From: Escherichia phage PhiR41_1
Length of the DNA: 64,000 nt
Sequence record: PV340561
Direction: 5' to 3' (one strand)
Part shown: piece after piece, positions 32,040 to 32,052 of the stretch
Layout: each line of letters starts with the position of its first letter
How positions within the stretch are numbered: the first letter of the stretch is position 1
The notes under the pieces: generated by a model
Told to the model about the DNA's origin: nothing
Databases searched by the model: none
What the model saw: only the letters and a program-made list of their open reading frames with translations
Made by a program: the position numbers and the translations under genes

Positions 32040-32052
32040 AAACAATTTGTTT
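32040..32052. promoter_or_regulatory. 13-bp palindromic operator-like site AAACAATTTGTTT upstream of the helicase gene
   Basis: Perfect palindrome with 1-nt centre, about 30 bp upstream of the start codon. Confidence 0.55.

Follow-up and report, generated by a model that had tools for sequence, protein, structure and literature searches.

A 13-bp palindrome with the consensus AAACAAnTTGTTT, i.e. AAACAA(G/T)TTGTTT, recurs in front of operons in a 64,000-nucleotide stretch of Escherichia phage PhiR41_1 DNA (sequence record PV340561; the whole stretch is called the window below). We favour, with moderate confidence, the view that this palindrome serves a repression circuit spanning the plasmid, as the dispersed DNA operator of a putative global repressor. 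Judging by nucleotide identity, the window is part of an Escherichia SSU5-like phage-plasmid: the 8-kb region around the palindrome is ~97% identical to Escherichia phage-plasmids, among them phage Cyrano (OV696614) and many plasmids of E. coli, Shigella and E. albertii, and ~82% identical to the same region of Salmonella phage SSU5. About 44 kb of the ~108-kb replicon lie outside the window, and at the small-terminase gene (terS) a window position equals the Cyrano position plus 1621. In the proposed circuit, the phage-plasmid would have a set of modular sigma-70-type promoters that incorporate the operator core. A dimer or tetramer encoded by the element would bind the palindromes and stop RNA polymerase at initiation or immediately afterwards, so that about 20 transcription units of the + strand stay silent while the element persists as a plasmid prophage. 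At some promoters a second, inverted copy would cover the -35 element, 51 bp upstream, and the terS promoter would use two copies 25 bp apart. We infer the transcription start sites, the protein binding and the mechanism of repression from the arrangement of these sequences.

An earlier reading of the window, made from the sequence only, had described near-identical copies of the palindrome in front of several genes, and this was borne out. Four copies match AAACAA(G/T)TTGTTT exactly (1703-1715, 29106-29118, 32040-32052 and 58330-58342), where 100 dinucleotide shuffles gave an expectation of 0.00, and two more carry one mismatch (1678-1690, AAACAAGTTGGTT, and 44653-44665, AAATAATTTGTTT). The coordinates given in the sequence-only reading were right in general, except that the exact terS copy had been shifted by one base, to 1704-1716; the degenerate copy it had noticed before the vWA gene is the one-mismatch copy at 44653-44665. 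With their conserved or variant 5' trinucleotide, the six copies are as follows.

1675 to 1690, + strand: one-mismatch copy with 5' arm, AGA-AAACAAGTTGGTT, within the control region of terS; its centre lies 25 bp from that of the next copy, and its mismatch is retained in Cyrano, SSU5 and pMT1
1700 to 1715, + strand: exact copy, AGT-AAACAAGTTGTTT, 40 nt 5' of the small-terminase start at 1756
29103 to 29118, + strand: exact copy with arm, AGA-AAACAAGTTGTTT, 35 nt 5' of parA
32037 to 32052, + strand: exact copy with arm, AGA-AAACAATTTGTTT, 19 nt 5' of the DnaB-like helicase start
44650 to 44665, + strand: one-mismatch copy, AGT-AAATAATTTGTTT, 19 nt 5' of the CobT/vWA gene
58327 to 58342, + strand: exact copy with arm, AGA-AAACAATTTGTTT, 16 nt 5' of the DUF7238 gene at 58359

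A position weight matrix scan, which the sequence-only reading had proposed, was run with a matrix trained on sites from other genomes only. The six sites scored 17.1-21.9 of a maximum of 22.0 and the runner-up, in coding sequence, 10.8; the null gave a mean of 0.12 and a maximum of 2 sites scoring at least 16. All six are intergenic, in a window whose intergenic share is 9.6% according to a greedy gene call, and we calculated a probability of ~8e-7 for random placement of all six copies in that share. An equal frequency inside coding regions, which had been named as the finding that would speak against the proposal, was therefore not observed. Matches with two mismatches were at chance level (10 versus 6.5 expected) and situated in coding sequence. 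Each of the six copies lies upstream of a + strand gene, the distance from palindrome to start codon being 16-40 nt, or 65 nt for the weaker terS copy.

In the whole genomes of two relatives, sites with at most one mismatch numbered 18 in Cyrano (0.8 expected) and 20 in SSU5 (0.25 expected), the majority of them in a region of small genes at 80-98 kb, beyond the window. A scan of 50 kb of a divergent Klebsiella plasmid of the Kp68 lineage, whose helicase gene is only 68% identical, yielded 18 sites, including 12 exact ones. In an unbiased k-mer count, no 9-mer recurred more often than AGAAAACAA/TTGTTTTCT, which led in Cyrano (20 sites) and shared first place in SSU5 (13); AGAAAACAA is the extended arm of the palindrome, and among 11-mers the AACAAnTTGTT words ranked first in SSU5 and among the top in Cyrano. 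The sequence-only reading had assigned the motif to early and maintenance genes. Such genes are indeed covered, but the description was too narrow: the regulon, with about 20 sites in each genome and most of these beyond the window, also takes in the late terS operon, genes of replication and nucleotide metabolism, and many small genes. At Cyrano 45801-45813 and 47940-47952, two annotated start codons are seemingly over-extended; the ATG of CYRAN_105 arises from a mismatch within the palindrome, and the annotated start of CYRAN_110 lies upstream of a palindrome that is intergenic at the SSU5 orthologue.

In an alignment of the helicase promoter orthologues from the window, SSU5 and two Klebsiella lineages, the flanks diverge but neither the half-sites nor the AGA arm vary; the central base differs in all four sequences (T, A, C and G). 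Alignments of the parA and cobT promoters gave the same pattern, with arms and AGA fixed in divergent surroundings. The site at the parA promoter is conserved in SSU5 and both Klebsiella lineages, and the CobT/vWA site is exact in the SSU5, Kp80 and pMT1 orthologues. The exact 19-bp full palindrome AGAAAACAAnTTGTTTTCT was absent from all loci examined. In an SSU5-like plasmid of Moellerella, a host of the Morganellaceae (NZ_CP093251), we found no exact palindrome and no palindrome regulon. Its parA promoter retains the left arm ATAAGAAAACAA, which occurs in 3 copies on that plasmid (0.05 expected), and three one-mismatch sites have flanks resembling coding sequence (not mapped to genes). The Moellerella plasmid has a dyad of its own, GCCTAGCTCCCATA/TATGGGAGCTAGGC, in 8 copies, some of them in inverted pairs of ~100 bp flanking promoter-like sequence.

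Thirty-seven sites, aligned by anchoring on the palindrome, fell into two classes, A and B. In class A, with 23 non-redundant sites, AGA is invariable at -3 to -1, T occupies -14 in 23/23, and conserved positions extend from -21 to -1, giving the block G.gatAAT.AC.CCAAyAAGA-AAACAAnTTGTTT-AA. Small-gene cassettes add, further upstream, a -35-like hexamer (TTGACg, TTTTAC), a 16-nt spacer with GCCTT(T/A)T and an extended -10 (TGnGATAAT); between this -10 and the palindrome, the consensus of the start region reads AAC.CCAAyAAGA. By this alignment, the palindrome is a component of a modular promoter of ~35-60 bp with an asymmetric AGA arm, and not the bare 13-mer described initially. With a -10 ending at -14, transcription is predicted to start at the conserved A at -7/-6, which would place the palindrome at about +8 to +20. 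The helicase promoter has an alternative conserved pair, TTGAnc-16 nt-nAnnAT, from which the start would fall inside the left arm, and we infer that the palindrome lies over +1 at the helicase and parA promoters. Class B sites, (T/A)AACAAnTTGTTTTCT, are the reverse complement of class A and lie over the -35 slot, often right after a terminator hairpin. Pairs of class B and class A sites 51 bp apart recur in Cyrano, SSU5 and Kp68, and 25-bp pairs occur at terS and in Kp68; overall about 23 sites are forward and 6 inverted. The distance from the palindrome to the Shine-Dalgarno (SD) sequence varies from 0 to 21 nt, and the register to the -10 is fixed, so the element appears to be locked to the promoter side and not to the ribosome-binding site. 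Terminators stand immediately 5' of the parA and 58359 modules, and sites directly after terminators mark the starts of new units. The following features adjoin the palindromes of the window.

1716 to 1737, + strand: G+C-rich 8-bp hairpin followed by a T-run, terminator-like, adjoining the terS palindrome and inside the predicted late leader before the terS start codon; it could be a regulated terminator
28997 to 29016, + strand: terminator-like hairpin ending the upstream unit, after which the parA promoter region comes next
32020 to 32025, + strand: TATAAT hexamer, the predicted -10, 15-20 nt 5' of the helicase palindrome; not kept in SSU5
58284 to 58303, + strand: terminator-like hairpin directly upstream of the 58330 promoter module

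The same modular architecture raises the question of whether any dedicated binder is needed. The conserved block could be an intrinsic part of the promoter, of the initially transcribed sequence or of a translation enhancer, multiplied through cassette duplication, or the site of a host factor present in Enterobacteriaceae and Yersinia and not in Morganellaceae. Many sites in the 80-98 kb region do belong to paralogous cassettes with ~60 bp in common, and the regulon is absent in the Moellerella host. A-rich ACAA leaders beside the SD are also common in the element; an arm-only copy of AGAAAACAA at 46869-46877, for example, abuts the SD of the cobS-like gene at 46889, and arm-only matches are for this reason ambiguous. 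However, the non-cassette promoters of terS, parA, the helicase and cobT keep precisely the palindrome within unrelated flanks, and a free central base between two constrained arms is the signature of recognition by a dimer. We know of no host regulator with this palindrome consensus, and we consider an explanation without a dedicated binder very unlikely.

A second intergenic word, (GA)TAAGTAAGTA or inverted TAAGTACTTA, was observed at window positions 16234-16242, 31257-31265, 57190-57198 and 62564-62572. Cyrano has 11 separate sites and SSU5 has 13, each of them preceding a + strand gene, and the word is also present at the parB-operon promoter, whose upstream cassette GCCTTTTG..TTGGCTATTAT is that of the palindrome promoters. 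This arrangement points to modular promoters that carry one or the other of two operator words; a second regulon may be involved.

To compare the sites with expression in the lysogen, we used published per-gene RNA-seq data for the Cyrano prophage in LF82 (PMC9928086, S1 Table), Cyrano being ~97% identical. The first genes after sites had a median of 7.3, compared with a background of 9.8 and with 114 for minus-strand genes (Mann-Whitney p = 7e-4). The parA operon was an exception, with values of 50, 89 and 55, and the ParB-like genes CYRAN_119 and CYRAN_120 were at background (5.0 and 9.5). Ciprofloxacin induces Cyrano 39-fold.

Whether the element acts as DNA or as RNA was examined by folding and by variation among sites. 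The 13-mer does not fold (0 kcal/mol), and with energies of 0 to -0.7 kcal/mol the leaders are no more structured than shuffles (z not significant); ~17 variant sites have single mismatches and no compensatory change, and Rfam gave no match in the window at the gathering score. An RNA hairpin or other structure of the 5' untranslated region was rejected on these three grounds. An alternative is that AAGAAAACAAnUUGUUUAA functions in the 5' leader of the mRNA, 0-21 nt ahead of the SD, where an FljA-family, Sm/Hfq-like protein would recognise it, block translation and destabilise the mRNA, in the manner of FljA acting on fliC. Post-transcriptional action on fliC mRNA via its leader has been described for FljA-type proteins (PMC2652032; bioRxiv 10.1101/2025.10.27.684867). 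SSU5-like elements encode such a protein: CYRAN_114/SSU5_121 (Cyrano 100780-101301, minus strand, beyond the window) gives a full-length match to Pfam Flag1_repress (PF03614, E = 1e-80) and weak Hfq/LSM hits, and consists of two Sm/Hfq-like halves. Copies of the gene occur in 835 plasmids, among them pMT1 of Y. pestis and plasmids of non-flagellated Klebsiella (345 records), and the protein is only ~36% identical to a plasmid gene product annotated as phase-1 flagellin repressor. As it is core to SSU5-like plasmids, those of non-flagellated hosts included, and this distant from the annotated repressor, host flagellin is an unlikely target.

Further points speak for recognition in the leader. 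The fliC leader of Salmonella and Citrobacter contains CAAGTTGT, the core of the palindrome, 7 nt before the SD; class A sites fall in predicted leaders, and forward sites outnumber inverted ones by 23 to 6; and in Moellerella, which is without the regulon, the syntenic FljA-like homologue, detected by a sensitive search, is only 25% identical. On the other hand, the Kp68 copy is 35% identical and the motif is unchanged there, which makes the co-variation argument weak, and the E. coli K-12 fliC leader has neither the palindrome core nor any similarity. Perfect dyad symmetry has no rationale in single-strand recognition, the hairpin is negligible and mismatches are never compensated, the inverted copies over the -35 slot are outside the mRNA of the gene concerned, and the spacing is fixed to the -10-like element and not to the SD. 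The FljA-like gene, moreover, is known from relatives such as Cyrano, as it falls outside the window. We therefore regard an RNA-leader operator as unlikely; a DNA operator is favoured by the dyad symmetry, the free centre, the -35 copies, the promoter-locked register and the lack of a fold.

A broader proposal would leave the choice of nucleic acid open: the FljA-family Sm-like protein would run the regulon by binding the leader element of ~20 operons, either on nascent RNA or on DNA at +8 to +20. Salmonella FljA, the repressor in flagellar phase variation, which is encoded beside the phage-derived Hin invertase, would consequently be a domesticated master regulator of phage-plasmids, and its target CAAGTTGT in the fliC leader a captured operator core. 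We consider this speculative and quite improbable.

Returning to a DNA operator bound by a protein of the element, the proteins encoded in the window were considered as binders together with those of the relatives. The relevant genes of the window are listed below.

1292 to 1558, + strand: 88-aa protein, winged-helix by eye, no Pfam family, just 5' of the terS sites; disfavoured as binder
29154 to 29822, + strand: small ParA ATPase of 222 aa, the first gene 3' of its palindrome
29822 to 30181, + strand: 119-aa ParA partner, phrog_5111, no Pfam family, with an open reading frame (ORF) overlapping the parA stop; candidate binder
43740 to 44126, - strand: XRE-type helix-turn-helix (HTH) repressor, beside the integrase; candidate binder, disfavoured

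The sequence-only reading had suggested the XRE or the winged-helix protein as the regulator, and neither suggestion held up well. The XRE-type gene is missing from SSU5, its own divergent region has TCAnnTATGATATA twice and no palindrome, and its recognition helix is preserved in the Moellerella relative lacking the regulon. Between this repressor and a 70-aa ORF, the window has a direct repeat, TCA(G/A)(A/T)TATGATATA, at 44289-44302 and 44310-44323, 21 bp apart, which is probably the operator of the HTH repressor itself. The winged-helix protein is at background expression in the lysogen and 61% conserved in Moellerella. The ParB-like proteins were rejected because they are silent in the lysogen. 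CYRAN_117, a second protein resembling ribbon-helix-helix (RHH) regulators, has a putative DNA-reading strand that differs between Cyrano and SSU5 despite their identical motif, and no copy was detected in the initial 50 kb of the Kp68 plasmid, a stretch that covers its expected place downstream of the helicase gene. The 119-aa ParA partner and the FljA-family protein are better candidates than the XRE and winged-helix proteins, but neither is established.

The N-terminus of the 119-aa protein is basic and disordered, and its core, KSRTMSLEDEYFELLE...FTRSDVIRAAI, is conserved; the protein is present in every lineage, with a nearly invariant strand-like segment KSRTMS(L/I)EDE. Together with its expression in the lysogen and the retention of the parA promoter site, or at least of its arm, these features fit a type Ib ParA partner that autoregulates. 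On this basis the palindromes may instead be partition-linked, bound by the 119-aa protein as a centromere-binding partner of type Ib, with an autoregulatory operator at parA and dispersed centromere-like sites that also silence neighbouring promoters, as do omega of pSM19035 or SopB of N15. The partner ORF, which overlaps the parA stop codon, is conserved in all lineages, and the parA promoter has a site in every lineage, if the Moellerella arm ATAAGAAAACAA is included. The par operon is moreover expressed in the lysogen (50-89) while the ParB-like genes remain at background (5-9.5), and the centres of the half-sites are 7 bp apart, like omega diheptads. Nevertheless, Moellerella has the 119-aa protein and no regulon, whereas pMT1 keeps four palindrome sites without ParA or the partner, a natural experiment that is weak because this plasmid is evolutionarily young. 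No repeat array was found next to the par operon in the window, where a single palindrome stands 5' of parA and the densest 150-bp windows have at most 3 half-sites. Partition-linked sites seem to us quite unlikely.

The proposal of the sequence-only reading that the palindrome is a coordinating operator stands in part. Its association with promoters, dyad symmetry, free centre, conservation at orthologous promoters and the silence of downstream genes in the lysogen agree with it, while the regulators proposed and the bare 13-mer as the unit do not. Several observations weigh against a repression circuit acting through the palindrome. In the lysogen, + strand units are just as silent when they lack the motif (p = 0.13); silence is hence compatible with repression via the palindrome but is no proof of it, and parA, with an exact site upstream, is expressed at ~5 times background. 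A simple consensus scan found no canonical -35/-10 pair at the window sites. The orientation bias (~23:6) and the leader position are also compatible with an element acting at the RNA level, and every candidate binder carries counter-evidence.

The closest functional analogues of a palindromic operator of this kind are the P1 C1 operators, the RK2 KorA/KorB palindromes, the L5 stoperators and the pSM19035 omega regulon, and it differs from all of them in sequence and in binder. P1 is also a plasmid prophage in which scattered lytic operons carry the same short operator at the promoter, in some cases paired, and are silent in lysogeny. The C1 operators are asymmetric 17-bp sequences, ATTGCTCTAATAAATTT, whereas here the core is a 13-bp palindrome of different sequence, the late terS genes and parA carry the site, and no C1 homologue was identified in the element. 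In RK2, the 12-bp KorA and 13-bp KorB (TTTAGCSGCTAAA) palindromes likewise occur at many promoters of one replicon, coordinate replication, partition and other operons, and vary in position relative to the promoter, although their sequence is different; the background expression of the ParB-family genes in the lysogen makes a KorB-like role unlikely for them. The gp71 stoperators of mycobacteriophage L5, ~20-30 sites of 13 bp in short intergenic regions genome-wide, share the orientation bias and the silencing of the prophage, but they are asymmetric and bound by a monomer, while the palindrome is symmetric, tied to a promoter module and used in both orientations (~23 to 6). Omega of pSM19035 and ParG of TP228 resemble the 119-aa protein in being small, encoded after a small ParA and equipped with a disordered N-tail, and have sites at parA and other promoters; those sites are arrays of 7-bp or 4-bp repeats and not single palindromes, and the RHH fold of the 119-aa partner is putative. 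The FljA-fliC system of Salmonella shares with this family of elements an FljA-family protein and, in the fliC leader, the CAAGTTGT core, and in the element the target would likewise lie in the leader just before the SD. It differs in that the element's protein is ~36% identical to the annotated flagellin repressor and would serve a regulon of ~20 sites instead of one mRNA, and both the -35 copies and the dyad symmetry point to DNA.

The gene order of the window runs from the upstream edge of the small terminase through tail, lysis, parA, helicase-primase and an integrase-HTH module to cobT/cobS, dnaE with recombination genes, and repA. Several departures from the relatives were noted along it. 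A LEM-3-like GIY-YIG nuclease ORF occupies 30234-31001 on the minus strand, where the Cyrano counterpart position has the + strand gene CYRAN_30. A chaperone-usher fimbrial operon at 37415-42109, comprising a 194-aa ORF, a PapD-like chaperone, an 826-aa usher and an AraC-family regulator, takes the place of DNA ligase, small ORFs and tRNAs in Cyrano and is reminiscent of the caf1 locus on the related plasmid pMT1. The RecA/UvsX-like ORF at 54800-57139 encodes 779 aa, of which the SSU5 and Moellerella homologues align over only ~0.36-0.38, suggesting an insertion, possibly an intein, in the lineage of the window. Within a long intergenic region, positions 36877-36926 hold a 14-bp tandem repeat, TATCGCATTTAAGT, in 3.6 copies.

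In the searchable literature, we found no description of the palindrome motif or of lysis/lysogeny control of the SSU5 type. SSU5-like elements, such as pHCM2 of S. Typhi, pECOH89, Cyrano of the adherent-invasive E. coli (AIEC) strain LF82, resistance-carrying elements of Klebsiella and the related pMT1, are among the commonest phage-plasmids in clinical Enterobacteriaceae. A defined operator of ~20 sites would give a direct handle on their control of lysis versus lysogeny, and the list of sites would define the regulon. The modular promoters, together with the second word TAAGTAAGT upstream of other genes, which may mark a second class of control, hint at how the circuit is wired. The analysis also raises a testable connection between a family of phage-plasmid regulators and the flagellar phase-variation repressor FljA, and the interest of the finding would be higher should the FljA-family protein prove to be the regulator.
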